Notes: generated from the sequence alone by a model not told the origin. Positions 10,895-48,843 are shown, counted from the first letter of the stretch. The stretch: DNA of 64,000 nt from Candidatus Bathyarchaeia archaeon (GCA_049515895.1 JBEKTQ010000020.1:11387-75386), one strand, 5' to 3'. A program made the numbers and translations.

Positions 10895-10922
10895 TTTTTA
10901 CCCACTTCATTTTTGCCTTGTT

Positions 10923-13363: not shown

Positions 13364-13809
13364 TTCACCTTATTTAAGTCGCCGCCATTTTTTAGAGGGC
13401 TTGGACCTAGTTTCCTAATCTGTTCTGTAATTTCGATCATGGTCTTAGCAAAGCGATCTCCTTCAGAAGCTGAAATCCACTCTATTCTGAGCCGTTCAGG
13501 CTCTAAGCCAAACTGAGCCAAAACTTTCTTCAGAAGAGCGATTCTTCGCTGTGCCTTGAAATTTCCGGAAATGTAGTGACAGTCAGAGGGTAAATGACAT
13601 CCTGCTATCAACACTCCATCCGCGCCGCTTTTGAAAGCTTCAAGCACAAAAGCTGGATCAACCCGCCCGCTACACATAACGCGGATTATTCGTACGTTTG
13701 TCGGGTACTGCATTCTGCTAATTCCTGCGAGGTCTGCACCCGCGTAACTGCACCAGTTGCAGAGAAAACCAACAATCTTAGGTTCGAAAGCCAACTCAGT
13801 CTCAGTCAT
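13360..13809 (-). CDS. mvhD: Hydrogenase [2Fe-2S] subunit D
   Basis: FLCNWCSYAGADLAG, VMCSGRV, GCH..DCHY. Confidence 0.96.
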   Translation of the reverse strand: MTETELAFEPKIVGFLCNWCSYAGADLAGISRMQYPTNVRIIRVMCSGRVDPAFVLEAFKSGADGVLIAGCHLPSDCHYISGNFKAQRRIALLKKVLAQFGLEPERLRIEWISASEGDRFAKTMIEITEQIRKLGPSPLKNGGDLNKVN

Positions 13810-13810
13810 T

Positions 13811-14677: not shown

Positions 14678-15195
14678 ATCACCTTTTTGCTTTGATTCTC
14701 CTTTGATTTCAGAGTTTTTACTTCGTCTATGATTTTCGCGATCTCCTGTCTATCTAAGGATGTGACGGGAGGAAGCCCCAGGTCGCCACGCATTTCGTTA
14801 ATAAAGTCCGGCGAATCGAAAGTCTTTCCGTATTGAACGATGGCTTCAGCGACTTTCTTGTAGTACGGATTAATTTTCCCTTGCTCAACAGCCATGTTCC
14901 GGAGAACACGCATTATGTCAGTAAAGTGCACTCCCTGTGGGCAACGCTCGCTGCAGGAATAGCAAGTTGCGCAGAGCCAAATCGTGGGACTATCTAATGC
15001 AAATTCACGAAGACCTAACATCACCGCTCTGATTACTTGGGCTGGACGATATTGATTCTTGAAGCGCTCTATAGGGCAGGTGGCTTCGCATTTCCCGCAT
15101 TGAAAACACTGCCGCAAGGTTTCCCCGCCGGATTGCGCTGAAACTTCATATTTGAACGAGGGATCAATTCTAAAACTGTTCTCAACTGATTGCAT
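14674..15195 (-). CDS. hdrC: Heterodisulfide reductase subunit C
   Basis: CFQCGKCEATCP and CATCYSCSERCPQG. Confidence 0.95.
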   Translation of the reverse strand: MQSVENSFRIDPSFKYEVSAQSGGETLRQCFQCGKCEATCPIERFKNQYRPAQVIRAVMLGLREFALDSPTIWLCATCYSCSERCPQGVHFTDIMRVLRNMAVEQGKINPYYKKVAEAIVQYGKTFDSPDFINEMRGDLGLPPVTSLDRQEIAKIIDEVKTLKSKENQSKKVI

Positions 15196-15197
15196 GA

Positions 15198-17222
15198 TTA
15201 TGCTTCCTCCTGAATCTTAATTGGTTCTGTCTTACCCGTGCAATTGCTCGCTTCTGGTGCCAATGCTCTTATCTGAGCCAAGATTTGTTGATCCGTGAAA
15301 TGCCGCAGCGATATCGATTTTGTTGGACATGCTGAAGCACAAACACCACATCCCATGCAGGTTATCTCAGATACTGATGCCACTTGCTTGCCTTTCTTCT
15401 CCTCCATCTTTATCGCATCATACTTGCACAGTGAAACGCAAACTCGGCAACCGCTACAAAAATCTTCATTCACTACGGCAATTGAAGACTCGGTTCTTAT
15501 TTTTCCTTTAGAGAGGAGTGATGCAACGCCTGAGGCGGCTGCTTTCGCCTGCGCGACACTAGCAGGTATGTCCTTTGGCCCTTGACAGGCACCAGCGAGA
15601 AATACACCCATTGTGGGCGTGTCAACAGGTCTAAGCTTCGGATGAGTCTCCAACAGGAACCCATCTGCTCCCCGCGGAATTCTTAGAATTCGGGTTAGGT
15701 CTGCAATTCCTTTTGGCGGGATCATTCCTATAGATAGAATTACCATGTCAAGGTCTACTTCCACCATTTTTCCCAAGACAAGATCTACCACTCTCACGGT
15801 CAAGTTCTTCGTTTCAGGGTCTTCGGTTAGTTCAGCCGGTATTCCTTTTACAAAGGTAACCCAAAGGTCACGCGCCCGTTGGTAGAACTCTTCAAATCCT
15901 TTTCCAAATGCTCGAATATCATTGTAGAAAATATAAACTTCATATTCGGGGTGCTTTTCCTTTATCAAGACAGCTTGTTTGATGGCGCTCATACAGCAGA
16001 TGTTTGAGCAGTAGATATTTCCTGTTCTTTCATCTCTGGAGCCTACGCATTGAATGAAAGCAATCCTGTGTGGTTCTTTGCCATCCGATGGACGCAAAAG
16101 TTTGCCTTCTTGCGGACCAAATGCACTGATCAATCTTTCAAAATCCAAGCTTGTAACAACGTTTTTGTATTTTCCATATTGGAACTCCTTCAGCGTGGAT
16201 GGGTCGAAGGGCTCAAAACCAGTGGCAACGATGACAGCGCCTACATCTAGTTCGACGATTTGGTCTTTTTGTTCATAGTCAATTGCTTTGGCTTCGCAGA
16301 ATTTTTCGCATAATTTGCAGACACCCTTGGTGAAGTACAGGCAGTGTTCTTTGTCAATTGTGTAGATTGCTGGAACTCCCTGGGGAAACGGTATGTAGAC
16401 TGCTTTTCGCATTCCCAGATTCATGTCAAACTCGTTAGGCGTTTTTACTGGACATTTTGATGCACAAACTCCGCAACCGACACATTTCTTCTCGTTAACG
16501 AATCTAGCCTTTTTCAGGACCTTTACGTGAAAGTTTCCTGCAACGCCTGAAACCTCTTGAACCTCGCTGTTTGTTAGAAGGGTAACATTTGGGTTCTTGG
16601 CTACATCCACCATTTTCGGCGCAAAAATGCAAATCGAACAGTCCATGGTTGGGAAGGTCTTATCGAGTTGAGCCATATGCCCGCCTATTGTAGGTTGTCT
16701 TTCGACCAGACATACTTTGTAGTCTTGTTCTGCAAGGTCAAGAGCTGATTGAATACCGGCTATACCTCCACCGATGACTAATACTGATTTGAGTGCGGGA
16801 ACCTCTTTTACTTCCAAGGGCTCTAGAAGCCGGCTTCTGGCAACAGCCATGCTTACCAATTCTTTGGCTTTTTGGGTGGCCTTGGCGGGTTCCTTCATGT
16901 GAACCCATGAGGATTGCTCTCTTATGTTGACCATTTCGAAAAGGTAGGGATTGAGCCCTGCCTGCTCCATTAATTTTCTGTATGTTGGTTCATGCATTCG
17001 AGGCGAACATGCTGCGACGATTACTCTGTTGAGCTTTTGTTCTTTAACATCCTTTTTGATCATTTCTTGACCGGGGTCGGAACATGTGTATTTATAATCT
17101 TTAGACACAACAACATCCGGAAGAGTTTTCGCAAATTCTGCCACTGCTTTCGCGTCCACTGTGGCAGCAATGTTCAAACCACAGTGACAAATGTAGACAC
17201 CTATTCTTGGTTTCTCAGTCAT
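15198..17222 (-). CDS. hdrA: Heterodisulfide reductase subunit A
   Basis: IGVYICHCG, AACSP, GGGIAG, LDKTFPTMDC, QCVGSR, ferredoxin motifs. Confidence 0.97.
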   Translation of the reverse strand: MTEKPRIGVYICHCGLNIAATVDAKAVAEFAKTLPDVVVSKDYKYTCSDPGQEMIKKDVKEQKLNRVIVAACSPRMHEPTYRKLMEQAGLNPYLFEMVNIREQSSWVHMKEPAKATQKAKELVSMAVARSRLLEPLEVKEVPALKSVLVIGGGIAGIQSALDLAEQDYKVCLVERQPTIGGHMAQLDKTFPTMDCSICIFAPKMVDVAKNPNVTLLTNSEVQEVSGVAGNFHVKVLKKARFVNEKKCVGCGVCASKCPVKTPNEFDMNLGMRKAVYIPFPQGVPAIYTIDKEHCLYFTKGVCKLCEKFCEAKAIDYEQKDQIVELDVGAVIVATGFEPFDPSTLKEFQYGKYKNVVTSLDFERLISAFGPQEGKLLRPSDGKEPHRIAFIQCVGSRDERTGNIYCSNICCMSAIKQAVLIKEKHPEYEVYIFYNDIRAFGKGFEEFYQRARDLWVTFVKGIPAELTEDPETKNLTVRVVDLVLGKMVEVDLDMVILSIGMIPPKGIADLTRILRIPRGADGFLLETHPKLRPVDTPTMGVFLAGACQGPKDIPASVAQAKAAASGVASLLSKGKIRTESSIAVVNEDFCSGCRVCVSLCKYDAIKMEEKKGKQVASVSEITCMGCGVCASACPTKSISLRHFTDQQILAQIRALAPEASNCTGKTEPIKIQEEA

Positions 17223-17303
17223 TATGTTCACTCTAACCTTTGCGCTCTCGAACGTAGCTCTTTCTAGATTTGAATTGCTCTTAGTGCTTATAGACTCTGG
17301 TTA

Positions 17304-17317
17304 GTTGCAAAAGCGAC
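17304..17317 (-). promoter_or_regulatory. Putative operator upstream of the hdrA operon
   Basis: Minus strand reads GTCGCTTTTGCAAC, 11 nt, TATAAG. Confidence 0.7.
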
Positions 17318-17592
17318 AAACAGAGAATCAAAACATCCATTTGTCGACCCAAGTTGTATGAAAGGTCTTGAAAAGCTGAGAGCAACATCTGGATTTTTGA
17401 GCTCCAAGACTTAATTCAGTTTCGTGTTTTTCTCCAAAAATGAAATCGGCGGCTACAAAACGTACAAATGAATGTCGAAGCCAAAATTCCCGCCAAGACT
17501 TTGATGCAGCGCGCGCGAAACCAATTTTAAAAGGAAGAAAAACAAGCTCCAAACTAAAGTCTTCTATTAACTTACGGATTTCAAGAAGATTT

Positions 17593-17919
17593 TTACTCTT
17601 TTACTACTTCATATGTAAGGTTTTTCTTCAATCCAATTCCCATTTCCATCTCACAAGCTTTTACCACGCCTAAGGGAATAGGACAAATACAGTGAGGTAT
17701 AGTCTCTTTCATCATATCGGGATAAGTGCGCATACTTGCGGTTTTAAATTTCATCTTGAAGACATCCAGATTTTTGCATTCGCTCTCAAGACAAACGTCA
17801 ACTTCCATTCGGGGATTCTGTCTTTCGTTGGACTGTTTTTGAACTGTTACCACAGCTTTCATCATGCAATTACCTGGATCAATCCTGATTTTTGTTACCA
17901 TTGAAAAGGCTCCTCTCAC
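17593..17919 (-). CDS. Small Cys protein resembling DUF6951
   Basis: IDPGNC...ESEC...HCICPIP.GVVKACEME pattern. Confidence 0.6.
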   Translation of the reverse strand: MRGAFSMVTKIRIDPGNCMMKAVVTVQKQSNERQNPRMEVDVCLESECKNLDVFKMKFKTASMRTYPDMMKETIPHCICPIPLGVVKACEMEMGIGLKKNLTYEVVKE

Positions 17920-18614
17920 TTTGCTCGCTTTTCGGGCTTTTTAGGACTTGTCGTTATGTTAAACCCAACCAACAAGGTTCCAAGTCGGACGTCTTCCATG
18001 GAGAGATTAAACGTCTTCTTAAAATACTGATCAACTGACCGGGAAGGCCAACCACATGTCAAGTCTTTAATCCCATCGGTGTTTTCCAACCCCTTCTTAA
18101 ATCCGTCATGTGGAAGCGAGAACGGAAGCGTTGTGAACTTCACCGGTACACCTCTCTTACCTCTTAGTTTATACGTGTAGATTACGAATGGCCGTGAGCT
18201 CTTCCCGGTAAATAAGTAGCCTGGCTTTCCCCTAATCTCTTCCAACTTTACTGGGTCAGATATTTCTTCGCCGACGATTTCGCCGTTGGCCTTAAGGAGT
18301 ATTGTCGGATCTCTATACTCAAAGGTCTCGTCGTTAGTTATGAGAAGTACGACATCTCTTGTTAAGACTTCCTTTACGCCTTGATTTTCGATGCCTGCGC
18401 CGAATTGCACGAGTTTACTTTCTTCAGCAGTTTCCAACTCAAGTACTTTCTTTCGTTGGGAATCATCGAGCTCTTGTAAAATTGAACAAACACCCTTGCA
18501 TTCCTTTACAATAGAACAGACTCTTTCAGTGCATTTGGCAGACGTCAAATCGGCGCGACGGCCACTTTTTGTTTTTCTATTGTCAGTCTGATTTGTTTTA
18601 GTTGACAATTTCAA
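17916..18614 (-). CDS. Hypothetical protein
   Basis: 232 aa ORF overlapping both neighbours by 4 nt. Confidence 0.7.
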   Translation of the reverse strand: MKLSTKTNQTDNRKTKSGRRADLTSAKCTERVCSIVKECKGVCSILQELDDSQRKKVLELETAEESKLVQFGAGIENQGVKEVLTRDVVLLITNDETFEYRDPTILLKANGEIVGEEISDPVKLEEIRGKPGYLFTGKSSRPFVIYTYKLRGKRGVPVKFTTLPFSLPHDGFKKGLENTDGIKDLTCGWPSRSVDQYFKKTFNLSMEDVRLGTLLVGFNITTSPKKPEKRAK

Positions 18615-19681
18615 GCTACCTTGCCTATTGCTTTGACTATTGCTGTTATGAAATCTTCTGGTGAAGCGCCAGGGGTTGTAACATTTCCCTTAGAGTAGAA
18701 GGAGGTTACAGCTTGACGAACTGATGTCTCATCAGCTCTGACTCCTCTGAGCATGGCTTCAAGGGCGACTATTGCTTCTACAGGATGCATTAGATAGTCA
18801 CCTGTTATCATTATCTCTATTATCCTGTTGTCAGTAATGTAAGCGTTTATTCTGATTACTCCTTTTTTGGCTTTGTGAATGTATGTTGCGTTGACTCGTT
18901 TGAACAAACGTGGGTTAATGTTCCATGTGTCTTGCTCGAACCTTTCATCAAAGACTGTGGGTTCGAGCTCTCTATCTGTCAAATCCCCTTCGAGAAGAGT
19001 GATATTCAACGCTTTTTCAAATCCTGTTCGAATAGCCTTCTTTATCTGGTCCAAACTAAACGGATCCTTGCCGGATTTCAAAGTCTCTTTATTTATCCAA
19101 GTAATTCGATCTTCGATCTTTGTTAAGCCTTTGTCTTGAAGTTTCTCTTTGGGAGCCTTTATCAACAAAGCCAATGTTGGAAGATCTATTTCGGTGGTGA
19201 TGAAGCCATGTTGAATTATCATTCCAAAACTCCTGTGCTGAGAACTGCCAGAGAACTTCTTCCCTCCGATCAGAACGTCGTTGATCGGGACAAAAGTTGC
19301 ATCTAGCCCCAATTCCTTAAGACCGAGGGTAACACCGTTGCAGATTACTTTGTAGGTTTCCTCAACATTTTTGGGCATTGATTTGCTCCTTTCGTCTGCA
19401 ATTATTGAATATGCCAAAACGGTCGGTGTAAGATATCCTGTTCCGCCGCCACCCATGCGCCGTATAATTGGAACCCCAAGTTCTTTGGCCGCTTGAACAT
19501 CTACTTCTTCATAGACGTTCTGGAAGTAGCCTAATGTAAGATACGGCTTGTCTGCCCTCCAAAGTAGTAAGGTATTCTTGACCTTTTTTTCAGCAACGGC
19601 TTCTTCGATGGCATGAAGAAAAGGAAGCTCTATCACGTCTAAATCAACAAATCTCCACTTATCCAAAGATTTCACGCTCAC
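18611..19681 (-). CDS. lplA: Lipoate-protein ligase (catalytic plus C-terminal domain)
   Basis: WRFVD, LGYFQ, RRMGGGGTGY, NDVLIGGKKFSGSSQ, C-terminal ITGDY. Confidence 0.9.
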   Translation of the reverse strand: MSVKSLDKWRFVDLDVIELPFLHAIEEAVAEKKVKNTLLLWRADKPYLTLGYFQNVYEEVDVQAAKELGVPIIRRMGGGGTGYLTPTVLAYSIIADERSKSMPKNVEETYKVICNGVTLGLKELGLDATFVPINDVLIGGKKFSGSSQHRSFGMIIQHGFITTEIDLPTLALLIKAPKEKLQDKGLTKIEDRITWINKETLKSGKDPFSLDQIKKAIRTGFEKALNITLLEGDLTDRELEPTVFDERFEQDTWNINPRLFKRVNATYIHKAKKGVIRINAYITDNRIIEIMITGDYLMHPVEAIVALEAMLRGVRADETSVRQAVTSFYSKGNVTTPGASPEDFITAIVKAIGKVA

Positions 19682-19828
19682 TCACAACTGTACGCAGCAA
19701 TCATTACACAGTTTAACTATTGCGGCCTTTAACATTCTTTTCATCATTTCTTGACCGAAACTTAAGGTTGCGCCTAAACATCTTATTTTCAGTTTCTCAT
19801 TGTCTTTAGAGTTAATAGAGTGTAGTAA

Positions 19829-19842
19829 GTTGCAAAAGCTAC
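19829..19842 (-). promoter_or_regulatory. Putative operator upstream of the lplA unit
   Basis: Minus strand reads GTAGCTTTTGCAAC, 11 nt, TATTAA. Confidence 0.65.
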
Positions 19843-19887
19843 AAACATGTTGAAACACACGCTAACCAAGTCACTCAGACATGCAGG

Positions 19888-20922
19888 TTATTTTAGTTGT
19901 GATTCGTCCACTGAGCAGCACATTATATCGTTGTATGATTTGATGTCGAGTCCAAGATTCCGGGCTGTTCGAAGTGAATTTTCTGTAGGAATTGCCAATT
20001 TGCCAATTCCAGCCCGGATAGCCAGCTCGTCTATCTTTTCACGATAGTCTTTTCCAGGTCGCACACAACCCAGCGAGACGGAAGTGTTTGGAAACATCAA
20101 ATTGGCAATCGAAATGACCTTTGCTACATCCTCAGGGGAAGAAGGAAGAATATCAGCCATCGCTGTCTCTTTGGTAGGAATAAGAACCACAATGGCGATT
20201 GTAGATACTTTAGCATGTGACACTATCTCGAGAGCTTTGGCTTCTCCTTTTAATTGTCCAAAGTGAAGTCCGACACAAATATGAGGAGAAATATTTGGAA
20301 TTCCTGCAGCGTTCAGTGCTGACAGAGTTTTTGAGTAGTCATCAGGAGTAATTTCAACACCATAAACACCTCGAGTGGTTTCAGCAGATCCAACAACGTC
20401 GAGCAAGGCAATGTCTAAGCCAGCCTCAACGAGCATCTTTGCTTTTTCGTAATCTACTGGACCCGTATGAGCAGAGATAATTAAGCCTGTCTCTCGCTTG
20501 ATTTTGCGTATCGTGTCTGCAAATTGATCCAATGGAATAGTCCCGTCTTTTCTGCTTCCTCCGCTTAGAAGCACGCCTGGAGCATGGTTTGCAGCCAATT
20601 TTTTGCAGACTCGAAGCAGTTTTTCAGGATCACTCGCAGGAAGCATGTGCCTCAAGTAATGTTGACTGCAGTGCTTACAGTTTAGACTGCAGGATCGACC
20701 CGTAATAGATACAGGCTGGAAAGCTTTATGATATACAGTAAGGGTCTTACCAGTTTTTTTGTCTGAAACATGTCTAGATTCAGATAATAATTCGGGGAGT
20801 TGATCGTTGCAAATCGACATTAGCAGTTGGGCTTCATCGCCATTAATAGGCGTGCCTTTGTGCGCTTTGTCATGTATTTGGCTTAAGTCTTGTTTTGTCA
20901 GATCAGGGAACTCCCAGGTCAA
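19888..20922 (-). CDS. lipS1: Radical SAM lipoyl synthase component, LipS1-like
   Basis: CSLNCKHC, C-terminal GCVR and CC motifs. Confidence 0.8.
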   Translation of the reverse strand: MTWEFPDLTKQDLSQIHDKAHKGTPINGDEAQLLMSICNDQLPELLSESRHVSDKKTGKTLTVYHKAFQPVSITGRSCSLNCKHCSQHYLRHMLPASDPEKLLRVCKKLAANHAPGVLLSGGSRKDGTIPLDQFADTIRKIKRETGLIISAHTGPVDYEKAKMLVEAGLDIALLDVVGSAETTRGVYGVEITPDDYSKTLSALNAAGIPNISPHICVGLHFGQLKGEAKALEIVSHAKVSTIAIVVLIPTKETAMADILPSSPEDVAKVISIANLMFPNTSVSLGCVRPGKDYREKIDELAIRAGIGKLAIPTENSLRTARNLGLDIKSYNDIMCCSVDESQLK

Positions 20923-20934
20923 AACATTAAGGGG

Positions 20935-21390
20935 TCATGGTTCGTCATAATCGCCGAATTTCTCTTTTTCCTCGTCAATTATAGTCTTGTAGTATTTGGC
21001 CGCCTTCTTAGAATCCATAAGTTCTTTCAGTTCAAGCTTCGGGTCATTCACGGCAATCACAAATAACCAGCCTTTGCCGTATGGCTCCTCGTTAATCATG
21101 TCCGGTTGCTTGTAGAGGGCATTATTTGTCTTAGTAACTTTCCCACTCAAAGGAGCATGAATCCTAAACACTGCCTTTATTGTTTCGAAAGAACCTATTT
21201 CTTCCCCCTGTTTCCTTTGATCCCCTTCAAGCGGCAAATCGACATGTACAATTTCTTTGCAGAGAGCCTCTCCAAGACTTGTAAAGCCAACTTTTGCTTC
21301 ACTTCCCGTTAGGTCTATCCACAAATGATCCTTGCTGTAGTATAGGTTTGGTGGAAAATTAAAGCCTTCAACTTTAACCATATATTTCAT
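20935..21390 (-). CDS. gcvH: GcvH-like lipoyl carrier protein
   Basis: YSKDHLW, ETIKA (lipoyl Lys), APLSG, PYGKGW. Confidence 0.9.
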   Translation of the reverse strand: MKYMVKVEGFNFPPNLYYSKDHLWIDLTGSEAKVGFTSLGEALCKEIVHVDLPLEGDQRKQGEEIGSFETIKAVFRIHAPLSGKVTKTNNALYKQPDMINEEPYGKGWLFVIAVNDPKLELKELMDSKKAAKYYKTIIDEEKEKFGDYDEP

Positions 21391-22367
21391 CTCTTTCCTT
21401 TTTTAGATTTTTTTCGTTCATGCTTTTCACTTTTTTTAATACTTATGGTTTGACCAACTTCAAGTTTGATTTGGCCGACCTTCAACGGGATGAGCTTGAT
21501 TTCGCAGACGTTGCCCAAACACAGCCTGCTGGAAATTCCCTGATATTCGAAATCGTTAACAGTTGTTTTGAAAGGGGTAATTTCCATCTTGGTTAATCCA
21601 TTAAGGCTTTCATTTACAGTCCCTATTTGTGTATGGTTAAGGTACACTGGGGAGCCAATGTTCATTTTCTCATTAGTCACCAAAGCTCCGTAACCTAGGA
21701 AGGGAATTCCCCCGTCAAGAAGCCCAAAAGTCTCGTCGACTCTTGCTTGTAAACCCGAAAAATTGCCTATAGTTGCCCAATGTTCAGGACTTGGTCGGAT
21801 AGTCGCGTAGCGAGCCTCCACCTTTGTCACGACGCCTGTCAAGTTCTCTTCAGCTTGGGTTTTTGGTGCAACAGGGCCTTTGTTGTCTGATTCATTTAGA
21901 ACCGAAAGGCGATGGGAACCTAGAGCCCTTAAGGATTCGTTAGGGTCGCGGAGTTCAACATGAATATGTGGCTCTACCCAGAAAGGATAATACCCACTTC
22001 GAATAAGCACAGCAATTTTTTCCCCGACGCTAACGCTTTTGCCTAATCCAACTTTTGGACATGCATGAATAATTTTCACGTATACTGAAGGGTTCTCGGC
22101 AGATTCAATGAGGGTCAGATACTCATAGATGGGGGGTTTATCGGAAAATGGACTGGGCGAGGAGTACTTCTTCACGTCTCTGACTATGCCGTTTACTGGG
22201 CAAGCAACCTCGTCGTTGAATTTGGCGCCAGCTGGATAAATATCCAATGCTCCAAACGCTCGATGTGCTGGATAAGGACTGCTACAAAAGGAAACGTAAC
22301 TCTCTTTCGGAGCATAAATTTTTACACCAAGTGTGCCTGCAACCGGAGTAAATATCGCCTCGCTCAT
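21387..22367 (-). CDS. Hypothetical protein with M23/LytM-like His motifs
   Basis: PAH...ALDIYP, CPVNG, IIH, PHIHVELR. Confidence 0.55.
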   Translation of the reverse strand: MSEAIFTPVAGTLGVKIYAPKESYVSFCSSPYPAHRAFGALDIYPAGAKFNDEVACPVNGIVRDVKKYSSPSPFSDKPPIYEYLTLIESAENPSVYVKIIHACPKVGLGKSVSVGEKIAVLIRSGYYPFWVEPHIHVELRDPNESLRALGSHRLSVLNESDNKGPVAPKTQAEENLTGVVTKVEARYATIRPSPEHWATIGNFSGLQARVDETFGLLDGGIPFLGYGALVTNEKMNIGSPVYLNHTQIGTVNESLNGLTKMEITPFKTTVNDFEYQGISSRLCLGNVCEIKLIPLKVGQIKLEVGQTISIKKSEKHERKKSKKGKR

Positions 22368-23392
22368 TTTACACCGGCTCCTTTTGAAACGTTGACCTGT
22401 TTCTTTATCTCCCTCAACTCTTCCTCTGAAGGAAGGACAGGAAAATTATAAATCTTCTTTTCAGGAGTCTCATTAGCGAATGGCCGGTTGCAGTCAGGAC
22501 ATCCTGATGTAAGGAAAGGTTCACCGTGAGCGATTGTCTTCTCCACCTCTTCTTTGGCTATTCCGAAATCTTTGATTTCGCCAGATTCGTTGAATAGCAT
22601 TTTTTCTGCTCGAGTTAGATTTTGGTAAATTAGGTAGTTAGCTAATTTTATCCGTCGATAACTCTCAATTGACGGAGGCTGACCGCCCGCCAACCGTGTG
22701 CCGGCAATAGGGGTGAAAGCGAAAAGCGCACTGTAAACACCCTCATCGTTAAGTTTCGCCAATAAATCCACTGCTTCATGCTCAGTTTCGCCTAAGCCCA
22801 CCATCAAATGTGTGCCGACGTTGCCTTTGCCCATTATTTCGACCGCGTCGTGTATCGCTTTAAGGTGGCTTTCCCATCTGTAAGGACCTGCAGCCTTAGC
22901 GCCTTTAATATCATCAAATATTTCTTCGTTCGCCGCATCCAGAGGAATTATTATTTTTTGAACACCACTGTCCCTTAGACGCTTAATCTGCTCCGCCGGA
23001 ACTGAAAAAATAGAGACTGATATTGGCGCGGCAACCTCGGCATTCAATCTGTTGACCACCCAGAGCAATTCGTTCATGAGGTTAGAATAATTCAGGGTTT
23101 GGATGCATATCCGTTTAATGAATTTGCGTTTAGCCGCTTTTTTCAGCCGAGTGATTACCAATTCCGCATCGTATGGCAAGTACAGCCCCCTTGCGATCTT
23201 GTCAACCTTAGCTTCAGAAGTTTTCGCTTGAGCACAAAACTTGCAGTTGGCGGCACATCTGCCAGGGTAGTAAGTCTGTAAATACGCTGTAGTTGGAGCA
23301 TTATCGCGATTCATAAAAGCCATTTCAAGCCCTAAAATAACTGCAGTACCGATGGAAACACGTATTTTTTTAACAGGTTGATTGAGTGTCAC
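22364..23392 (-). CDS. lipS2: Radical SAM lipoyl synthase component, LipS2-like
   Basis: CAANCKFC and C-terminal TSGCPDCNRP. Confidence 0.85.
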   Translation of the reverse strand: MTLNQPVKKIRVSIGTAVILGLEMAFMNRDNAPTTAYLQTYYPGRCAANCKFCAQAKTSEAKVDKIARGLYLPYDAELVITRLKKAAKRKFIKRICIQTLNYSNLMNELLWVVNRLNAEVAAPISVSIFSVPAEQIKRLRDSGVQKIIIPLDAANEEIFDDIKGAKAAGPYRWESHLKAIHDAVEIMGKGNVGTHLMVGLGETEHEAVDLLAKLNDEGVYSALFAFTPIAGTRLAGGQPPSIESYRRIKLANYLIYQNLTRAEKMLFNESGEIKDFGIAKEEVEKTIAHGEPFLTSGCPDCNRPFANETPEKKIYNFPVLPSEEELREIKKQVNVSKGAGVK

Positions 23393-23395
23393 TTC

Positions 23396-24433
23396 TCAGG
23401 GTTCCTCCGTTGATGTTAGTCTAAGATAAGACGCGGGGGGCACTGCACAACACACGGCATAGGATTCAGTCGTCAACCCAATAGACTCCGATTGCTTGAG
23501 AGCAAAGTCAGACGGGGTTGCAATGCTCGTTACACCTGCTTGAATTGCCAGTTTCTCAATAAGTGCCCTGTCAGCTCCTTTAGACCTTGCGCACCCTAAA
23601 GTTATGGGAACGTTAGGAAACATCAACCGAGAGACTGAAACAACCTTGGCAACATCATAAGGGTTCACAGTTACTTTTTCCAACGGAGTACCTCTCAGCG
23701 GCATTAGCGCAGTTATTACAACCGTTGTGGGTTTGATGCCGGAGATTATTTCTAGAGATGTTAATTCATGTTTAAGGTTGCCAAAATTGAGCCCAACGCA
23801 AACATGTGGAGATATTATCGGTATTTTGGCCTTTTCGAGAGCTTTCAGAGTTCTGGTGTAGGTTTTGGGTTTTATTTCGATTCCGTAGACAGCTTTTGTC
23901 GTTTCGGGTGAACCAACAACATCTACGGCGGCGCCATCTAATCCAGTTGACGCCAATTTTTCTGCTTCTTGAAAATCCACAATTCCAGTGTGGGCGATTA
24001 CTATGAGATTAGTCTTCTTCTTAACTGAAGATATAGCATCTAAGAAGTTGCCAAGGGGAACCTTGCCGCTTGGCAGACAGCCCCCAGTGATTAGAACGCC
24101 TTTAGCGCCTTTCTTTGCTAGTTTTTCACAAATTTCTACGAGTTTTGTAGGAGATGGAGCAGCCGTCAAGTTTTGCAGGAGTTTGGTCTGGCAGTGTTTA
24201 CATCTTAAAGCACATTCGCTGCCGGTCACGGATAATGCGGGGAAGTATCGTGATGTATAGTAGAAGTTGATTTTTCGACCCATCTGCTTATCAGACAGGG
24301 CTCTTGTGGTTGCCGATAGAGACAATATTTGGGTTGCGTCCTTTAGCTCTAAGAGTTCTTTTGCTTCGTGAATGGATATTGCCTTGTTCTCGAACCCTTT
24401 TTCTCGTAACTCCGTAAATTTGTTTGTTAACAC
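23396..24433 (-). CDS. lipS1: Radical SAM lipoyl synthase component, LipS1-like (second copy)
   Basis: CALRCKHC, GCAR and CC motifs; paralog of 19888-20922. Confidence 0.82.
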   Translation of the reverse strand: MLTNKFTELREKGFENKAISIHEAKELLELKDATQILSLSATTRALSDKQMGRKINFYYTSRYFPALSVTGSECALRCKHCQTKLLQNLTAAPSPTKLVEICEKLAKKGAKGVLITGGCLPSGKVPLGNFLDAISSVKKKTNLIVIAHTGIVDFQEAEKLASTGLDGAAVDVVGSPETTKAVYGIEIKPKTYTRTLKALEKAKIPIISPHVCVGLNFGNLKHELTSLEIISGIKPTTVVITALMPLRGTPLEKVTVNPYDVAKVVSVSRLMFPNVPITLGCARSKGADRALIEKLAIQAGVTSIATPSDFALKQSESIGLTTESYAVCCAVPPASYLRLTSTEEP

Positions 24434-25258
24434 TTACGCACCATCTACGTTGTCATAAGGCATGAGTTTGTCGGTTTTGATGTCCATGTTATAGGTCCAT
24501 TCTTTTGATGCGAACTTCGGTTCTAGACTTTTGATTAGTTCGGTTTCTTTTCTGGTGAGTGTTTCATATTTTATTTCGGTGTTTAGCACTTTTTCGAAGC
24601 CTGACTTTATTGTTTTCTTGACTTCGGACAGTTCGATTCTTCTCGATAGTTCTCTGTTGATGCAGGTCAAACCTTCTTCGATTGAATTTATTCCGGGCTT
24701 CAAATTCTTGAATGGATTCCTAAAAACTTTCGACATTGTTTCAAAGTCAAAGTCGACGAGTAGACTGCCACCCACTATTTGAGCGCCGGTTAGGCCAGTA
24801 GAGGAATTTCCGGATACTTTCTTCCCGTTAATCCAAATTGCGTTGTTGTAGTCCGACACCAAAGTAACGTCGTTGAAACCAAGGTCTCGCAGACCCTGCA
24901 AGACTCCACGGAGAGCGTAGTTATACATTCTTTGAATAATTGATGAAATTGGCGCAATAGGGTGGTCAGTGCCGATAACAATGTCATATAGAAGCTGGTT
25001 TTTGTCAACATATCCTGTTCCGCCACCGAGGATTCGGCGAACGATACTTACGCCCAATTTCTCGCATACGTCTGCATAAACCTCTTCTTTCACAAGTTGA
25101 AAATAGCCCAAGCAGACAAACGGCTTCGTCGGTCTCCAGAAAATAATTGTGTTAGGAACCAGATTCCTTGATCGGGCAATGCCAACTGCTTCTACAGTAG
25201 CAACTCCGGTCACTGGATCCACTAAATCTGTATCTATGAGCCTCCATTGTTCAACCGT
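24434..25258 (-). CDS. Lipoate ligase/octanoyltransferase catalytic domain (LipM/LplA-N type)
   Basis: RRILGGGTGY, GKKVSG. Frame extends to the conserved WRLID motif, implying an ACG/GTT start near 25258. Confidence 0.85.
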   Translation of the reverse strand, partial: TVEQWRLIDTDLVDPVTGVATVEAVGIARSRNLVPNTIIFWRPTKPFVCLGYFQLVKEEVYADVCEKLGVSIVRRILGGGTGYVDKNQLLYDIVIGTDHPIAPISSIIQRMYNYALRGVLQGLRDLGFNDVTLVSDYNNAIWINGKKVSGNSSTGLTGAQIVGGSLLVDFDFETMSKVFRNPFKNLKPGINSIEEGLTCINRELSRRIELSEVKKTIKSGFEKVLNTEIKYETLTRKETELIKSLEPKFASKEWTYNMDIKTDKLMPYDNVDGA

Positions 25259-25562
25259 TTACGATTCCTCGTCAATGTTCTTTCTTAACTTATTTCATTG
25301 CCAAATAATAATCGTTATTAAGTACACCTGGCTAGCGCACGCAGAGGCTAAGGACGCGAACCTAACTAATAAATTCCAGTTAATAACAAAGAGAACAAAC
25401 CGAAACTGAGCAATTAATTGCGTTTTAGGATTTATGAAGCTTAGACACTGCACGAAACCCTAATGTTGGCTAAAAGTGACATTGAAAATGCAAATTCTAT
25501 TGTGCAAACCTAGAGAAAAATAAAAAGTTTGGGCGCGATTGTACACGCGCTTTTTGATGTTT

Positions 25563-26834
25563 TTAGGCTTGAAGTGGGTATTTGAAGACTTCAAGTATTG
25601 TCTTGACTGCAAATTCGATTGCAGGTAGCGGAATTGTTGGATCTCCAGTGGGAACTGATACGTAGGTTCTGTGGCCTTGAGTTGGATATTTCATAAATAG
25701 TTTTGCGTGCCTTGTAAAGTCGTTTCGGATAGCGTTTTGGTAGTCTGGGGAGAACATCGCTACGTTGTCAAATGCATCGTGAGCCCAAATGTTGTCGTAT
25801 TTGCGGGTGTTGTTATACCATTCGTCGACGTTTGGATGTTCACTGAAGCCTAGCATTCCTCCGCCGCCGTTTTCACTGAGGCACTTTGCAATTGGCACGT
25901 GCGCGGTCATTGGTCCTTCAGGGATTACTTCAGGTTGCCATCCTTTCTTTGCACAGTATTTTATGGCATCGGTATAGGTTATGTCGAAGACTTTTGCAAA
26001 TTCTTCGCCCGTTAGGTAGCTTGTTGAGTCGCACCAGGTTATCCAGTTGCCTTCTCCGGTGTCATCTATTTGTTGTCCAAGTATTTCGGTTTGTTTGTCA
26101 ATCTTCTTTTTCAGAAGAGCGGTTGTACCTTTGAGGCATAACTCAGCCAATTCCATGTTCTTTCGAATATCCATAACGAAATCTTTGATACCTCTTAGGA
26201 AACCAGCCATAGTTATTGGACCGCCACAGCAAGATGCTACTATAGGCATCTCTGGCACTAGTTTCATGAGTGCTTTGACTTCCCAGAAGTATATTGGCCA
26301 AGTTCCAGCTCTTAGTGCAGGCTCAGGAACGTTGTCTAAGAAGAATAGTGCATCTTCTTTGGTTCTGACAAATGGCTCTACGGCGAGCGGTGGACCGTTT
26401 TCGATGAATCTGAATTTTCTTGTTACAAGCTCTTCTCCGAATCCATAGTTGTACAGCCAATTCATGTCGGTAGTGCTTGCAAATTTTGCATACCACAGCA
26501 TTTGCCCTATTGCGTCCAAGTTAGGATGATTAATCATGTCTTTTGTGAAGAGTATCGATGGTGGATCCGCGAAGCCATCAAATATTCGTGTCATGGTTTG
26601 ATGCAGTCCACTGCAGTGACTGGGTAACCGGTCCAGTGGTTCATTAGTGAATAGAGCTTTGGCCCATCTTTGGCGAGGCATCATTTGTTCTTCTTTCTTG
26701 GTGTCAAGCCACTTTGCTTTTGCTTTCTCCAGCATAACCTCTTCCGTAGCAGTAAATTGGTAACTGAACGGCCCTTTGTTCCACCACAATGGATAATCGC
26801 GGTTGACTTCTTCAGAATTCCATTCTATATTCAT
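25563..26834 (-). CDS. Uroporphyrinogen decarboxylase/MtaA-family corrinoid methyltransferase
   Basis: GPITMAGFLRGIKDFVMDIRKN..LAE, EEFAKV, DPTIP; coupled to a corrinoid protein gene. Confidence 0.75.
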   Translation of the reverse strand: MNIEWNSEEVNRDYPLWWNKGPFSYQFTATEEVMLEKAKAKWLDTKKEEQMMPRQRWAKALFTNEPLDRLPSHCSGLHQTMTRIFDGFADPPSILFTKDMINHPNLDAIGQMLWYAKFASTTDMNWLYNYGFGEELVTRKFRFIENGPPLAVEPFVRTKEDALFFLDNVPEPALRAGTWPIYFWEVKALMKLVPEMPIVASCCGGPITMAGFLRGIKDFVMDIRKNMELAELCLKGTTALLKKKIDKQTEILGQQIDDTGEGNWITWCDSTSYLTGEEFAKVFDITYTDAIKYCAKKGWQPEVIPEGPMTAHVPIAKCLSENGGGGMLGFSEHPNVDEWYNNTRKYDNIWAHDAFDNVAMFSPDYQNAIRNDFTRHAKLFMKYPTQGHRTYVSVPTGDPTIPLPAIEFAVKTILEVFKYPLQA

Positions 26835-27547
26835 TACTTCACCCCCTTCTTAAGTCTCTCTTCTTTAAGTACTCGCATTAGTTCATCAGTTTTTTTAACC
26901 GCGTCAACCATGTCTGCGCCCCAACCGTCTAAGCCATATGTAGGTACGTCAGTTTCGAAGGTTGATTGTCCGCCTGCAACTACTTTCACGTTGTCTCGAA
27001 TTCCTAATTTCTGCAATTCTTTGACGACTTTAGGCATTGATGTTTTGCACATAGACATAGAGCAGCTGATTCCGACTATGTCTGCTTTCGATCTTTTTGC
27101 TTCTATCGCAAAGTTTTTGGCTGGAACGTCTAAGCCAATATCGTTGATAACATATCCAGCTGATTCGTACATTGTTGAAACGAGGCTTTTTCCAATATCA
27201 TGTACGTCGCCCTCAATAGTTCCCAAGACTATCTTTCCCGGAAGCTCGGCCTTCTTTGCACCAGCTAACAATAGAGGTTTTAAGATGCTTGTGCTTTTTA
27301 CGAGGCATTCGCCTATCACAATCAGATCTGATAAAAGTAAGGCTTCGCTTTCGGAAACATTACTTACTCCTTCTGTTCCGCCAGCCCACCAGCTTTTCGA
27401 AGTAAGCTCTTTTGCATATCCCACAATTTTGTTTAGCAAATCAAAAGGTTCGGCGCCAGCATCCAAAGCTTTTTGGGTTAATTCTCCAAACTTATCTGGA
27501 TCTTGTGCCTTAAGAGTTTCTTTAAGCTCAGTATATATTGCTTCCAA
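26834..27547 (-). CDS. Corrinoid (B12-binding) methyl-carrier protein
   Basis: GDVHDIGK, DIGLDVP, VGIS, VAGG. Confidence 0.93.
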   Translation of the reverse strand: MEAIYTELKETLKAQDPDKFGELTQKALDAGAEPFDLLNKIVGYAKELTSKSWWAGGTEGVSNVSESEALLLSDLIVIGECLVKSTSILKPLLLAGAKKAELPGKIVLGTIEGDVHDIGKSLVSTMYESAGYVINDIGLDVPAKNFAIEAKRSKADIVGISCSMSMCKTSMPKVVKELQKLGIRDNVKVVAGGQSTFETDVPTYGLDGWGADMVDAVKKTDELMRVLKEERLKKGVK

Positions 27548-27605
27548 ATGTTTACCTCCGACGTCTGAACCGAATTAATCAAAAAAACCTTATAGCTTGT
27601 AGGTA

Positions 27606-27619
27606 GTTGCAAAAGTAAC
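27606..27619 (-). promoter_or_regulatory. Putative operator between the corrinoid gene and the divergent trmB
   Basis: Minus strand reads GTTACTTTTGCAAC, 11 nt, TATAAG. Confidence 0.75.
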
Positions 27620-27726
27620 CACCATCTATGTTACAGATCATAAAAAATTTTGATTCTACAATGGTTGTGGATTACCAAAAAGATCATATATATTATAATT
27701 TGATAAGAAGAGGATGAGGAATTAGA

Positions 27727-28545
27727 TTGAGCCAGAATCTGATATTGGCGAAACTAATTGAGTTGGGATTTACAGATCAAGAAGCACGAATATACATATT
27801 GTTAGCAAAAACAGGAACTCTAAAGGCGAAAGACATTTCGAGAACTTTAAAAATAAACAAAGTCCAAGTTTACCGTAGCCTGAGAAACCTTCAGAACAGA
27901 GATTTTGTTGAATCATCGCTTGGGTGCCCGGCGTTTTTTTCTGCAACGCCATTTGACAAGCTAATAGACCTCGTGGCGGAATCTAAAAGTTCAGAGGCCA
28001 TGTTGCTCAAAAGCAACAAAGGAGCATTGCTATCCCTGCTGGGAAGAATGGAACAGCTGACGCCAAATGAAATGGACAAGTTTACGGTCGTGGAAAACGC
28101 TAATACGATTTACTCATTAATCGATCAGTTTTTTAAGAAAGCCCAAAAAGAAATCGTGGTAATGGTTGATGATGCATACAAGGCAGTACCGAATTTTGAC
28201 GAGAATCATCGCATAACAAAAGCTAACCTCAAACGAGGAGTCAAATATAGATGCATTGGCAAAGATAACGAGCAAAATCATGAGTCTACAAAAAGAATCA
28301 TGAACGATGGATGGATCTTAAGAAATTTTGAGAATAGATACAGTAAAATAATTAATAACAACTTTCCGTGCTTTTTCATGAGAGACGAAAAAGAGCTAAT
28401 ACTATCAATGGAAAAAGACGCTTTCGGATACATCAAGAAAATAATGATCACTAACAACCAAGCACTAATCAGTCTAGTAAAACTGTTCTTTGAAAAAACA
28501 TGGTGTGACTCAGAAATTTCAGAAATTGCCAAACTATCACTCTAA
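27727..28545 (+). CDS. TrmB-family transcriptional regulator
   Basis: LGFTDQEARIYILL...KVQVYRSLRNL HTH, plus RDEKEL effector-type domain. Confidence 0.9.
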   Translation: MSQNLILAKLIELGFTDQEARIYILLAKTGTLKAKDISRTLKINKVQVYRSLRNLQNRDFVESSLGCPAFFSATPFDKLIDLVAESKSSEAMLLKSNKGALLSLLGRMEQLTPNEMDKFTVVENANTIYSLIDQFFKKAQKEIVVMVDDAYKAVPNFDENHRITKANLKRGVKYRCIGKDNEQNHESTKRIMNDGWILRNFENRYSKIINNNFPCFFMRDEKELILSMEKDAFGYIKKIMITNNQALISLVKLFFEKTWCDSEISEIAKLSL

Positions 28546-28770
28546 ACAGAAGTCACAAAAAAAGTCAAACTGTATCTCTAAGACTCTTTCAGTCGTTAAT
28601 TCAAGAGCTACTCTCATGTAAGCTTTTCTTCAGCGTTTAATCAGCAATTGACGCTAGGCATGTTCTGGATTGAATAAGAAATTGGAAAACAAATCAGATT
28701 TAGTTCTCGGTACACAGGGCAATTTTATGTGAAATTACAAATAGTTTCCGCCCAACATCCTTACTAGGGA

Positions 28771-28784
28771 GTAACAAAAGTAGC
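28771..28784 (+). promoter_or_regulatory. Putative operator upstream of the SCP2 gene
   Basis: GTAACAAAAGTAGC followed by TGACCACATTTTAAAA; spacer nearly matches the gcvH site (TGACCACTTTA). Confidence 0.6.
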
Positions 28785-28847
28785 TGACCACATTTTAAAA
28801 CCAAATTGCATCATAAAGGAAACACAAAAAGGAGTTAAAGACAAAAA

Positions 28848-29198
28848 TTGTCAACTCAAGAAAAAGCTGATGAACTGATAAAAACTCTGACAGATAGAGT
28901 AAATGCAAAACCCGATGGGTCAAAAGGCTGGGGCGGAGCCATAATCATTAATTTCACAAATGCTGAAGAAGTTTATTTTCTGAAATTCGGCATGGACGGC
29001 AAAGTCGAAAAAGTTGATAAAGGATACCTTAAAGTAATGCAGAAAAAAGGCCCTAAAGCTACAATCAACACTACAACCGACACCGTAGACGCCATATACA
29101 GTGGAATGATTGATGGAATGGGGGCAATGATGAGCGGCGCAATAAAAGTCGACGGCCCGTTAGATGTCGTGATGAAGCTGGCGCCCGCATTTATGTAG
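28848..29198 (+). CDS. SCP2 sterol/lipid-binding domain protein
   Basis: ATINTT...SGMIDGMGAMMSGAIKVDG. Confidence 0.8.
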   Translation: MSTQEKADELIKTLTDRVNAKPDGSKGWGGAIIINFTNAEEVYFLKFGMDGKVEKVDKGYLKVMQKKGPKATINTTTDTVDAIYSGMIDGMGAMMSGAIKVDGPLDVVMKLAPAFM

Positions 29199-29242
29199 AA
29201 GCGAAACGCATTCAACAACTAAAGTCGGCGAGATGAAAAAGT

Positions 29243-29428
29243 GTGCTGCCAGAACTTGTCCCAATAATGCTAGCTATTAGCGCAATCACTCTATTGGCAA
29301 GTGTCGCTGCAATAAAGGTCGGGGCAAAAAAAATGCAGCTTTTCATGAAAGTCATGAAAGCAGTCTCGATTTTGAGCATAGTTGAGGGCATAGTCGACGT
29401 AGTAGCACTAATCACATATTTTATTTAA
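29243..29428 (+). CDS. Small membrane protein
   Basis: Two hydrophobic segments; follows SCP2 gene on the same strand. Confidence 0.4.
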   Translation: MLPELVPIMLAISAITLLASVAAIKVGAKKMQLFMKVMKAVSILSIVEGIVDVVALITYFI

Positions 29429-29586
29429 ACGCTACCACATGACGCTTAACACAAAGCGAGGCAAGCATCCTCATTTTTCCTCTGCTTTTCAAAAGCAAGC
29501 GTTTCATTTTAGTCCATAATTAATTCATATAAAAAAAACAATTAATGAAAAATCATCCTTTCTTTTTCTCAATTAAACCCGTTCAG

Positions 29587-29640
29587 GTTGGCATCAACTT
29601 TACCACAAAAAACTTTTACAGCGCCCCTAGCTGCGATTGC
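29587..29640 (-). repeat. Imperfect copy of an internal gcvH segment (29941-29993)
   Basis: gttggcatcaactttacca...ttttacagcgcc.ctagct occurs at both places. Confidence 0.75.
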
Positions 29641-30122
29641 TAGAGACCCTTGTATTCTCCACCTGTTATATCGTCCTTTGATTTTTCTGCTTCTTTCTTG
29701 AACCAATCTACAGCAGCGTCGCCGAAGAATATGTTCTTTAACTCGGCCTCGAGGTTGGATGGCTTTATAATACATAGCCACCCTGCTCCATATGGATCAT
29801 CTTTAAACGCGTTTGCTCCTCGTTTTCGAACTTCTTCGTTTACAGAAATAATTGTCCCAGACACTGGAGCAACAATCGGTCCGGTATACTTTATTGACTC
29901 TAATATCCCAAGCTTCTTTTTCTGAATTAACACTGTTCCAGTTGGCATCAACTTTACCATGAAGATTTTTACAGCGCCTCTAGCTACAATGTCATCAAAG
30001 CCTACACGGACATTTCCGTCATTCTCTTTTTTAGCCCAAACATGCTCATTATAGTATAAGTCTGGTCGAAACTTGAAACCGAAAACTTCTTCCACAGACA
30101 TCAATCTAACCTCATTTCGCAT
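29640..30122 (-). CDS. gcvH: GcvH-like lipoyl carrier protein (second copy)
   Basis: EHVW, ESIK (lipoyl Lys), APVSG, DPYGAGW. Confidence 0.9.
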   Translation of the reverse strand: MRNEVRLMSVEEVFGFKFRPDLYYNEHVWAKKENDGNVRVGFDDIVARGAVKIFMVKLMPTGTVLIQKKKLGILESIKYTGPIVAPVSGTIISVNEEVRKRGANAFKDDPYGAGWLCIIKPSNLEAELKNIFFGDAAVDWFKKEAEKSKDDITGGEYKGL

Positions 30123-30172
30123 TCGTTTACAATTTTAGAAAGAGCGTGTTTTGTCCTTATATAAAGTGGTCA

Positions 30173-30186
30173 ATTGCAAAAGTAAC
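30173..30186 (-). promoter_or_regulatory. Putative operator upstream of the second gcvH
   Basis: Minus strand reads GTTACTTTTGCAAT, 11 nt, TATAAG. Confidence 0.7.
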
Positions 30187-48840: not shown

Positions 48841-48843
48841 ACA

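Follow-up and report, generated by a model that had tools for sequence, protein, structure and literature searches.

A conserved 14-bp promoter element shared by hdr-mvh, lplA, corrinoid and gcvH units of a Bathyarchaeia archaeon, with a divergently encoded TrmB-family protein as candidate factor

In a 64,000-nucleotide stretch of DNA from a Candidatus Bathyarchaeia archaeon (GCA_049515895.1, JBEKTQ010000020.1:11387-75386; at its full length called the window), a 14-bp element was found upstream of four transcription units, namely an hdr-mvh operon, an lplA operon, a corrinoid protein/methyltransferase operon and a second GcvH-like gene (gcvH2), each time 11 nt from a TATA word. The analysis supports a real, non-random promoter element at a fixed position, and the element is very likely a transcription-factor site. 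A TrmB-family protein encoded at 27727, divergently from the corrinoid operon, is the best candidate factor because this adjacency was conserved in all four modules compared; that it acts as an activator through the upstream operator is the reading preferred here, held tentatively and with a confidence somewhat short of even.

The 14-bp element and its conservation

A preliminary description of the stretch had quoted five strings, each with an 11-nt gap to a TATA-like word, and all of them were found in place. Four of the sites (17304, 19829, 27606 and 30173) fit GTnrCTTTTGCAAy, are intergenic and are oriented towards the downstream gene; the gap to TATAAG (three sites) or TATTAA (one site) is exactly 11 nt at all four. 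GTWRCTTTTGCAAY had three exact matches in the window against 0.01 expected, and none of 100 shuffles reached three; the hdrA copy, with C at the W position, lies outside these three. When the ideal palindrome was searched with at most two mismatches, six matches were obtained in the window (the four promoter sites and two within genes), and with at most three mismatches there were 22 against 12.3 expected. With a weight matrix derived from these four, the sites themselves scored 20.2–21.9 bits, the next best 14-mer among 128,000 positions being a coding one at 14.1 bits. A second matrix and a 39-nt nhmmer model were built from seven non-redundant sites; the window has 29 intergenic regions of 40 bp or more, and with this matrix only four of them reached at least 20 bits, so the motif is not common at unrelated promoters there, and the fifth-best region scored 13.6 bits without a TATA word at +11. 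TAWWAR stood at +11 in four of four sites, the background being 88 of 15,922 intergenic positions (0.55%); at 0.0055 per intergenic position, four out of four has a chance probability of about 1e-9. In a blind word count CTTTTGCAA was the joint-top 9-mer by number of intergenic regions (4/29), level with two A/T-rich words; a second shared word from the k-mer count, ATTTTGATTA, was rejected, with 16 matches against 12.4 expected and hence no enrichment. The TATA words lie 39–136 nt before the listed starts (table 1). TATA-like words in the window were commonest 41–60 nt 5' of starts, a count that lends weak support since antisense words, many of them palindromic, peak in the same bin. The earlier statement that the motif defines the regulon applies within the 101.6 kb examined in total (the window and the loci L001 and L002 of relatives) and extends no further.

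The consensus is GTTACTTTTGCAAC, i.e. GTTAC-TTTT-GCAAC, in a 5-N4-5 layout. G1, T2, C5, T6–9, G10, A12 and A13 are invariant in the seven non-redundant sites and position 15 is always T; the 11-nt spacing was present in 13 of 13 promoters (TATA word and transcription factor B recognition element, BRE, being assigned from sequence) and 10 of these 13 have a spacer that starts with TnACyA. The element had been called a palindrome, and its dyad character stands, but the symmetry is imperfect: of the five positions in the arms GTTAC and GCAAC, 3–4 are complementary, and the T4 centre lacks symmetry, with constant polarity in the nine corrinoid, gcvH, hdrA and lplA promoters. It is located 12–25 bp upstream of TATA; the BRE, read by transcription factor B (TFB), takes up 6–7 bp. 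As in archaeal upstream activating sites, the element lies upstream of BRE/TATA without overlap (on the sequence-based assignment), is common to several promoters and is kept at orthologous ones.

The nearest public relatives of the window are two Candidatus Bathyarchaeota assemblies, here L001 and L002, whose loci both came from one genome scan aimed at TrmB loci (L001, 20.8 kb). In L002 the TrmB protein is 93% identical and the gene order is as in the window (module L002a), with a second, diverged copy of the module in addition (L002b); in L001 the identities are 68% (TrmB), 85–87% (methyltransferase), 83% (GcvH2) and 84% (SCP2), and the order methyltransferase-corrinoid, divergent TrmB-SCP2, then gcvH is kept. 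With a matrix made from the window only, the two best matches in L001 fell in front of the corrinoid and gcvH orthologues, each with a TATA word at +11: the gcvH promoter reads GTTACTTTTGCAAT-N11-TATAAG (12003–12016), with a 14-mer identical to that of the window, and the corrinoid promoter GTTACTTTTGAAAC-N11-TAATAG (9876–9889), with one mismatch to the window copy. The L002 corrinoid site (5901–5914) is the same as copy 3 of the window. Compared between window and L001, the 31 nt that run from the motif through the TATA word agree at 21/31 positions (corrinoid) and 27/31 (gcvH), and the 14-mer at 13/14 and 14/14, against upstream flanks identical at only 33/118 and 46/136 positions (28–34%). 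The 39-nt model recovered its seven training sites and two untrained ones, the L002 corrinoid site (33 bits) and that of L002b (13.1 bits, E = 0.011), and nothing further at E < 1 across the 101.6 kb. Upstream of orthologues, in a comparison that covered the corrinoid, gcvH and SCP2 promoters, motif and 11-nt spacing were thus kept before the corrinoid and gcvH genes of two Bathyarchaeota genomes.

Two further features of the relatives' loci were recorded. The diverged module at L002:8965-12415 is a copy of the whole: besides the corrinoid protein and a methyltransferase of 420 amino acids it encodes SCP2 and a divergent TrmB with 58% identity. Its corrinoid gene is preceded by TTTACTTCTGTAAA-N11-TATAAG, with perfectly complementary 5-bp arms and 4 of 14 positions different from the main operator. 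At L001:7830-9105 the methyltransferase orthologue is split into two overlapping open reading frames (ORFs; 85% and 87% identical to the corresponding halves), either by an assembly frameshift or as a pseudogene.

The fifth quoted string, 5' of the gene for an SCP2-fold protein, had been presented as a further copy of the motif; it is not a statistical match to it, but is a conserved variant of its own that occurs at the same spacing in 4/4 modules. It is absent from the 22 matches with at most three mismatches to the ideal palindrome and scored -2.7 bits forward and 9.8 bits reversed with the matrix, and 2.5 bits with the 39-nt model. GTmACAAAAsTAGm-N11-TAAAAs precedes all four SCP2 genes (window, L001, L002a and L002b) and is kept in L001 and in the diverged L002b, where the DNA around it cannot be aligned. 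On the complementary strand these elements match GTTACTTTTGCAAC at 10–11 of 14 positions (11/14 for the window copy, by eye); only 1–3 of their 5 arm positions pair and the tract runs in reverse (A4), the spacing being the same, and the SCP2 box falls in the range of 39–61 nt before the start, like three of the four main TATA words. We take the SCP2 element as a conserved, reversed, weaker relative of the operator, at which the same factor may plausibly act. The SCP2-fold protein itself is 84–96% identical across the four modules (genes at 28848-29198 of the window, L001:10926-11312, L002:7142-7489 and L002:12065-12412), against only 58–68% for the regulator between corresponding modules; on this comparison it is under unusually strong constraint for a small protein, and may be a ligand carrier for the regulator.

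The candidate regulator and its mode of action

The 272-amino acid protein encoded at 27727 matches PF01978 at 56.8 bits (E = 2e-15, residues 12–76, cut-off 25.6), i.e. it has a TrmB-type winged helix-turn-helix, and its best solved relatives are TrmB 3QPH (residues 9–73) and TrmBL2 5BPD. Tyr49 aligns with Tyr50 of Pyrococcus furiosus TrmB (VQVYR versus NRVYD of 3QPH), where Y50/D51 are listed and Tyr50 contacts DNA (PMC4158304), and the Y49/R50 pair is invariant in seven of seven relatives. No match to the effector domain PF11495 was obtained at E ≤ 1e-3 (the L002b paralogue reached 19.8 bits, below the cut-off of 22.2), and the protein ends at residue 272, before the reviewed sugar-binding positions G320/E326 (PMC4158304). 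It stayed under the cut-offs of the named NCBIfam equivalogs (TrmB, 24.6 versus 600 bits; TrmBL1, 32.6 versus 650; TrmBL2, 20.7 versus 530). It forms a separate small clade of seven clusters among 5.8 billion proteins (word search); HMMER scores around it fall from 540 to 251, 232 and 203 bits, and 3,135 TrmB-like representatives were found at E ≤ 1e-3.

The TrmB gene stands divergent to the motif-bearing corrinoid operon in 4/4 modules (window, L001, L002a and L002b), and two corrinoid modules without an adjacent TrmB gene (L001 12214..14482; L002 13125..15599) have no site. Binding of the 27727 protein to the element is suggested by this conserved divergent adjacency together with the habit of the family, whose sites are inverted repeats (PMC4158304). 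Other regulators were looked for in the cluster: a 326-amino acid ORF is DUF8155/M23-like, a 232-amino acid ORF yielded no lead, and domain scans found no other DNA-binding domain among the cluster genes. A second TrmB-family gene of the window (56408..57379) encodes 323 amino acids with a weak TrmB effector-domain match and 26% identity to the 27727 protein; its best upstream motif score is 4.2 bits, i.e. it has no operator. Upstream of the A/T-rich box of the 27727 gene, an inverted repeat CTACAA-TGG-TTGTGG was seen at 27656-27670 of the window; in L002 this type of repeat is perfect, as CCACAA-N3-TTGTGG, none was seen in L001, and it could be a separate operator for the TrmB gene.

In the reading preferred here, the element would be an upstream operator for a dimeric winged-helix regulator, and the factor the TrmB-family protein encoded divergently at 27727. 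From the dyad centre it is 18 bp to the first T of the TATA word and, by geometry, about 21 bp (two helical turns) to the midpoint of the box, so that a bound dimer would share a DNA face with the TATA-binding protein (TBP) and TFB, just past the BRE. It would help to recruit them. The corrinoid/methyltransferase operon, gcvH2, the lplA operon and the hdrACB-mvhDGA operon would be switched on jointly, and the SCP2 gene would probably be controlled too, via its reversed, weaker copy. Activation is suggested, by analogy, by the position of the site upstream of BRE/TATA; that such sites are typical of activators, as had been stated earlier, agrees with the literature on TrmBL1/Tgr, Tar, Ptr2 and TFB-RF1. 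Among TrmBL1 templates, two of three with an upstream site were activated and one was unaffected, and nine of nine with a downstream site were repressed (PMC4706686).

The points that weigh against this reading concern in part the factor. Adjacency is the sole link to the 27727 protein; another TrmB paralogue is encoded in the same window, the 3,135 TrmB-like representatives imply many candidate factors in archaea, and most of the genome lies beyond the source contig of about 75 kb. The distance between the operator and the TrmB promoter varies, the site lying 64–70 bp (window) or about 48 bp (L001) from the TATA of the TrmB gene, so autoregulation through it is not evident. The recognition helix of L002b is nearly identical yet the operator differs at 4/14 positions; regulator and operator therefore do not co-vary cleanly, and co-variation within the duplicated L002 module was set aside as evidence, being too weak. 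These points would suit an operator that is real but bound by a different factor encoded elsewhere, the TrmB gene being merely a regulon member or a neighbour. Such an arrangement is judged unlikely, though a serious contender: the divergent order is kept in 4/4 modules, the duplicated L002 module included, corrinoid modules without TrmB also lack the site, and the cluster encodes no second DNA-binding domain.

Further points on the same side concern the site and its effect. A match of at least 17.6 bits occurred somewhere in 17 of 300 shuffles of L001, so for the weaker site the L001 score alone is indecisive and the argument rests on orthologous promoters, orientation and spacing; the hdrA and lplA sites are known from the window alone, a lipoylation operon of the same array has no site, and binding, expression and transcription starts are sequence predictions. 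The identical, strong-looking TATAAG in three of the four core promoters is unlike a weak promoter in need of help, and the gap between site and TATA is only 11 bp, so a footprint longer than 14 bp would reach the BRE and repression is possible (by inference, one of 20–25 bp would touch it). The same TrmB-family protein on the same operator could then be a repressor or dual regulator that blocks TFB or bends the promoter until a ligand releases it. P. furiosus TrmB, encoded within the cluster that it controls, represses the TM and MD operons from BRE/TATA sites, and most archaeal regulators are repressors (PMC4158304). We consider repression improbable here, if quite credible, because in the cases considered it goes with sites overlapping BRE/TATA or downstream of TATA and activation with upstream sites (PMC4706686), and because strict helical phasing in all 13 promoters would suggest that the protein touches the initiation complex and does not simply occlude the promoter.

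That no regulator is involved, the element being an extended core promoter for a specialized TFB/TBP paralogue or a bent T-tract with a constitutive boosting effect, is very unlikely. It draws on the spacing fixed in 13/13 promoters, a rigidity that would suit core-promoter modules better than many regulator sites, on the TnACyA shared by 10/13 and on the T4 orientation fixed in nine; yet the element has dyad character, lies 12–25 bp upstream of TATA and so past a BRE of 6–7 bp, is absent from 25 of the 29 intergenic regions, and in the SCP2 promoters has its tract inverted (A4) at unchanged spacing. Resemblance by chance, recent duplication of a promoter cassette and a hairpin in the RNA of upstream transcripts are close to refuted as explanations. 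The hdrA and lplA promoter blocks are about 31/39 identical (by eye), as duplication would have it, but the shuffle controls disagree with chance, and diverged genomes keep the element next to flanks of only 28–34% identity; shuffled sequence folds less well than the hdrA and corrinoid sites (z = -2.8 and -2.2), and a hairpin or terminator reading of the dyad was rejected for inconsistent stability, the other three sites giving z = -0.2, +0.1 and -0.5. No Rfam family at gathering score and no tRNA was found in the window.

Gene setting of the regulon

The window has 42.5% G+C and is archaeal, encoding a thermosome. From 27.5 kb down to 10.4 kb runs a single long minus-strand gene array, which begins with the corrinoid protein and a 423-amino acid unnamed methyltransferase and continues, after a 340-bp gap, with an LplA-like ligase, LipS1, LipS2, a DUF8155 protein, GcvH1 and a second LipS1; after 206 bp follow LplA(+LplB), a 232-amino acid protein without assignment and DUF6951, and after a further 361 bp HdrA, HdrC, HdrB, MvhD, MvhG, MvhA and OsmC, inferred to form one operon. 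To the right of the array the TrmB-family and SCP2-fold genes lie on the plus strand, followed by the second GcvH-like gene on the minus strand (table 1). The methyltransferase is distantly and weakly MtaA/URO-D-like; its family comprises 11 clusters and has no Pfam entry and no name.

Table 1. Operator copies, promoter words and associated genes in the window (nt = nucleotides; matrix scores first, where given).
Feature	Position	Strand	Remarks
Operator copy 1, GTCGCTTTTGCAAC	17304..17317	-	5' of hdrA; 21.8 bits; 33.5 bits with the 39-nt model
hdrA TATAAG box (predicted)	17287..17292	-	11 nt past copy 1; 61 nt before the hdrA GTG at 17231
Operator copy 2, GTAGCTTTTGCAAC	19829..19842	-	5' of lplA; 21.5 bits; 29.0 bits with the 39-nt model
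lplA TATTAA box	19812..19817	-	11 nt past copy 2; 136 nt before the listed lplA start; long leader
Operator copy 3, GTTACTTTTGCAAC	27606..27619	-	divergent corrinoid/TrmB intergenic region; 21.9 bits
Corrinoid operon TATAAG box	27589..27594	-	47 nt before the TTG start, GGAGGT between
Operator copy 4, GTTACTTTTGCAAT	30173..30186	-	5' of gcvH2; 20.2 bits
gcvH2 TATAAG box	30156..30161	-	11 nt past copy 4; 39 nt before the listed start
Variant element, GTAACAAAAGTAGC	28771..28784	+	5' of the SCP2 gene
SCP2 TATA-like box TAAAAC	28796..28801	+	11 nt past the variant element
hdrA-hdrC-hdrB-mvhD-mvhG-mvhA-osmC operon	10409..17231	-	neighbouring genes touch or overlap
lplA operon	17593..19681	-	LplA(+LplB domain) ligase, 232-amino acid protein without assignment, DUF6951
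Corrinoid/methyltransferase operon	25563..27547	-	corrinoid protein 26834..27547; 423-amino acid methyltransferase 25563..26834
TrmB-family regulator gene	27727..28545	+	272 amino acids; Pfam PF01978; candidate cognate factor
SCP2-fold protein gene	28848..29198	+	Pfam PF02036; invariably next after the TrmB gene
GcvH-like protein 2 gene (gcvH2)	29640..30122	-	lipoyl-lysine retained

Matrix scores, intergenic counts and 39-nt-model matches agree with the earlier proposal in linking the hdr-mvh, lplA, corrinoid/methyltransferase and gcvH units through the motif. The reference to all these units was too wide, in that the six-gene LplA-like/LipS1/LipS2/GcvH1 operon (19888..25222) has no site, the best score in the 340-bp gap before it (25223-25562) being 6.3 bits. 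Directly past the methyltransferase stop, at 25500-25562, a short GC hairpin is followed by TTTTTATTTTT (fold z = -1.9), and this stretch looks like a terminator that separates the methyltransferase operon from the lipoylation operon. Given the terminator-like stretch and the gap without a site, the lipoylation operon seems to lie outside the regulon, which fits its status, lipS2-lplA-lplB-lipS1 being a standard archaeal lipoylation set (PMC10332631). Nor did a degenerate copy proposed at 1798-1811 (TGTCTTTTTGTAAC) hold: it scored 2.1 bits, has ATGATT instead of a TATA word at +11, has no Pfam family in either adjacent ORF, and is attributed to chance.

Several side observations were made on the surrounding DNA. 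The lplA leader (19682-19811) is estimated at about 105 nt from the TATA word to the listed GTG, far above the other three units, and is overlapped by a 58-codon ORF, the GTG start of which lies upstream of the TATA word. In the gap between the SCP2 gene and the convergent gcvH2, a hydrophobic 61-codon ORF (29243-29428) may encode an unannotated small membrane protein. At 2440-5959 a NifH-NifD fusion (740 amino acids) adjoins a NifD/K-like protein (464 amino acids); beyond this pair lie VWA and MoxR-type AAA genes and a RACo/RamA-like corrinoid activator (8739..10196) with a ferredoxin domain at its C-terminal end. The RACo start may be mis-set, or the gene frameshifted, since 212 bases 5' of the listed start resemble coding sequence (by eye). 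On the plus strand at 46161-56113 are encoded a type IV pilin-like protein, a T2SSE-type ATPase and a T2SSF-type membrane protein, a cluster for an archaeal pilus or archaellum-like system without relation to the motif.

Significance and comparison with known systems

The value of the operator lies in what it connects: HdrABC-MvhADG, a redox enzyme driven by hydrogen, is tied to a GcvH-like carrier, the ligase of that carrier and a corrinoid methyltransferase of an unnamed family. Which disulfide HdrABC-MvhADG uses in archaea that have neither coenzyme M (CoM) nor coenzyme B (CoB) is an open question in the literature. For Culexarchaeia, a GcvH-bound lipoyl disulfide was proposed as the Hdr substrate solely because the genes are adjacent (PMC9723716). 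A shared, conserved operator adds a line of evidence that does not depend on adjacency, and indicates that the four kinds of genes switch together, and through this co-regulation the lipoyl proposal becomes testable. A fuller scheme, in which the electron-bifurcating HdrABC-MvhADG works on lipoyl bound to a GcvH-like protein and not on CoM-S-S-CoB, LplA loads the carrier, the methyltransferase feeds methyl groups to or from the thiols of that carrier and the TrmB-like and SCP2 proteins sense a (hydrophobic) substrate, is doubtful as a whole; if HdrABC-MvhADG did act on GcvH-bound lipoyl, the 'heterodisulfide' still missing for Hdr in an archaeon that is no methanogen would have a name. One small regulator and a 14-bp site also offer an experimental handle for finding the rest of the regulon.

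In the literature searched, the 14-mer was absent in either orientation and no description of this regulon was found; a paper on Bathyarchaeia methyltransferases (mtgB) mentions neither TrmB nor GcvH, and none of the TrmB-family motifs given in PMC4158304 (the Thermococcales glycolytic motif, TGM; TACT-N3-AGTA; TACT-N7-8-GAGTA) matches the consensus GTTAC-TTTT-GCAAC. The cluster resembles the sHdr-LbpA clusters of sulfur oxidizers in combining Hdr-type proteins, GcvH-like lipoate-binding proteins, a dedicated ligase and LipS1/LipS2 (PMC6067878, PMC10332631). It differs from them in that its Hdr proteins best match methanogen HdrA/HdrA2 models, though under the cut-offs, and in that mvhDGA belongs to the same array as the hdr genes. 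Here Hdr is also linked with a corrinoid methyltransferase, and Pfam scans of the listed window ORFs detected neither DsrE nor TusA nor a rhodanese domain. The bacterial sHdr systems have ArsR-type repressors, not TrmB, as their regulators.

Among regulators, TrmBL1 of P. furiosus and Tgr of Thermococcus kodakarensis share with the present system a TrmB-family winged helix-turn-helix, an inverted-repeat site at several promoters and a site position upstream of BRE/TATA, there associated with activation (PMC4158304, PMC4706686). They differ in the motif (TGM, TATCAC-N5-GTGATA, 6-N5-6, against 5-N4-5 with a T4 centre) and in the targets, which are sugar metabolism there and redox, methyl-transfer and lipoate genes here; the present protein has 272 amino acids, no match to the sugar-binding effector-binding domain and 32.6 bits against the TrmBL1 cut-off of 650, and all sites here lie upstream of TATA at one fixed distance. 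TrmB of P. furiosus and T. littoralis, for the trehalose/maltose cluster (TACT-N3-AGTA), likewise has its gene within the cluster and a palindromic operator (PMC4158304), but its site overlaps BRE/TATA and represses, whereas here the site lies 11 bp upstream and the protein scores 24.6 bits against 600. TrmBL2 (5BPD, 5BOX) is of similar length (264 versus 272 amino acids) and gave the longest structure alignment (residues 18–190; NCBIfam 18–259); it is a repressor and chromosomal protein that binds coding and intergenic regions (PMC4158304), in contrast to the specific site at 4–5 promoters described here, and the 27727 protein reaches 20.7 bits against the family cut-off of 530. Tar (TK0271) follows the same logic, with one palindrome, TGGACA-N8-TGTCCA, upstream of BRE/TATA in three operons of one pathway (PMC6737238); motif and pathway are different, and binding and activation were shown by experiment there and are proposed from sequence here. 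Set beside these systems, the element would be a TrmB-type operator with a new sequence, of a kind already known and ordinary as a regulatory element.

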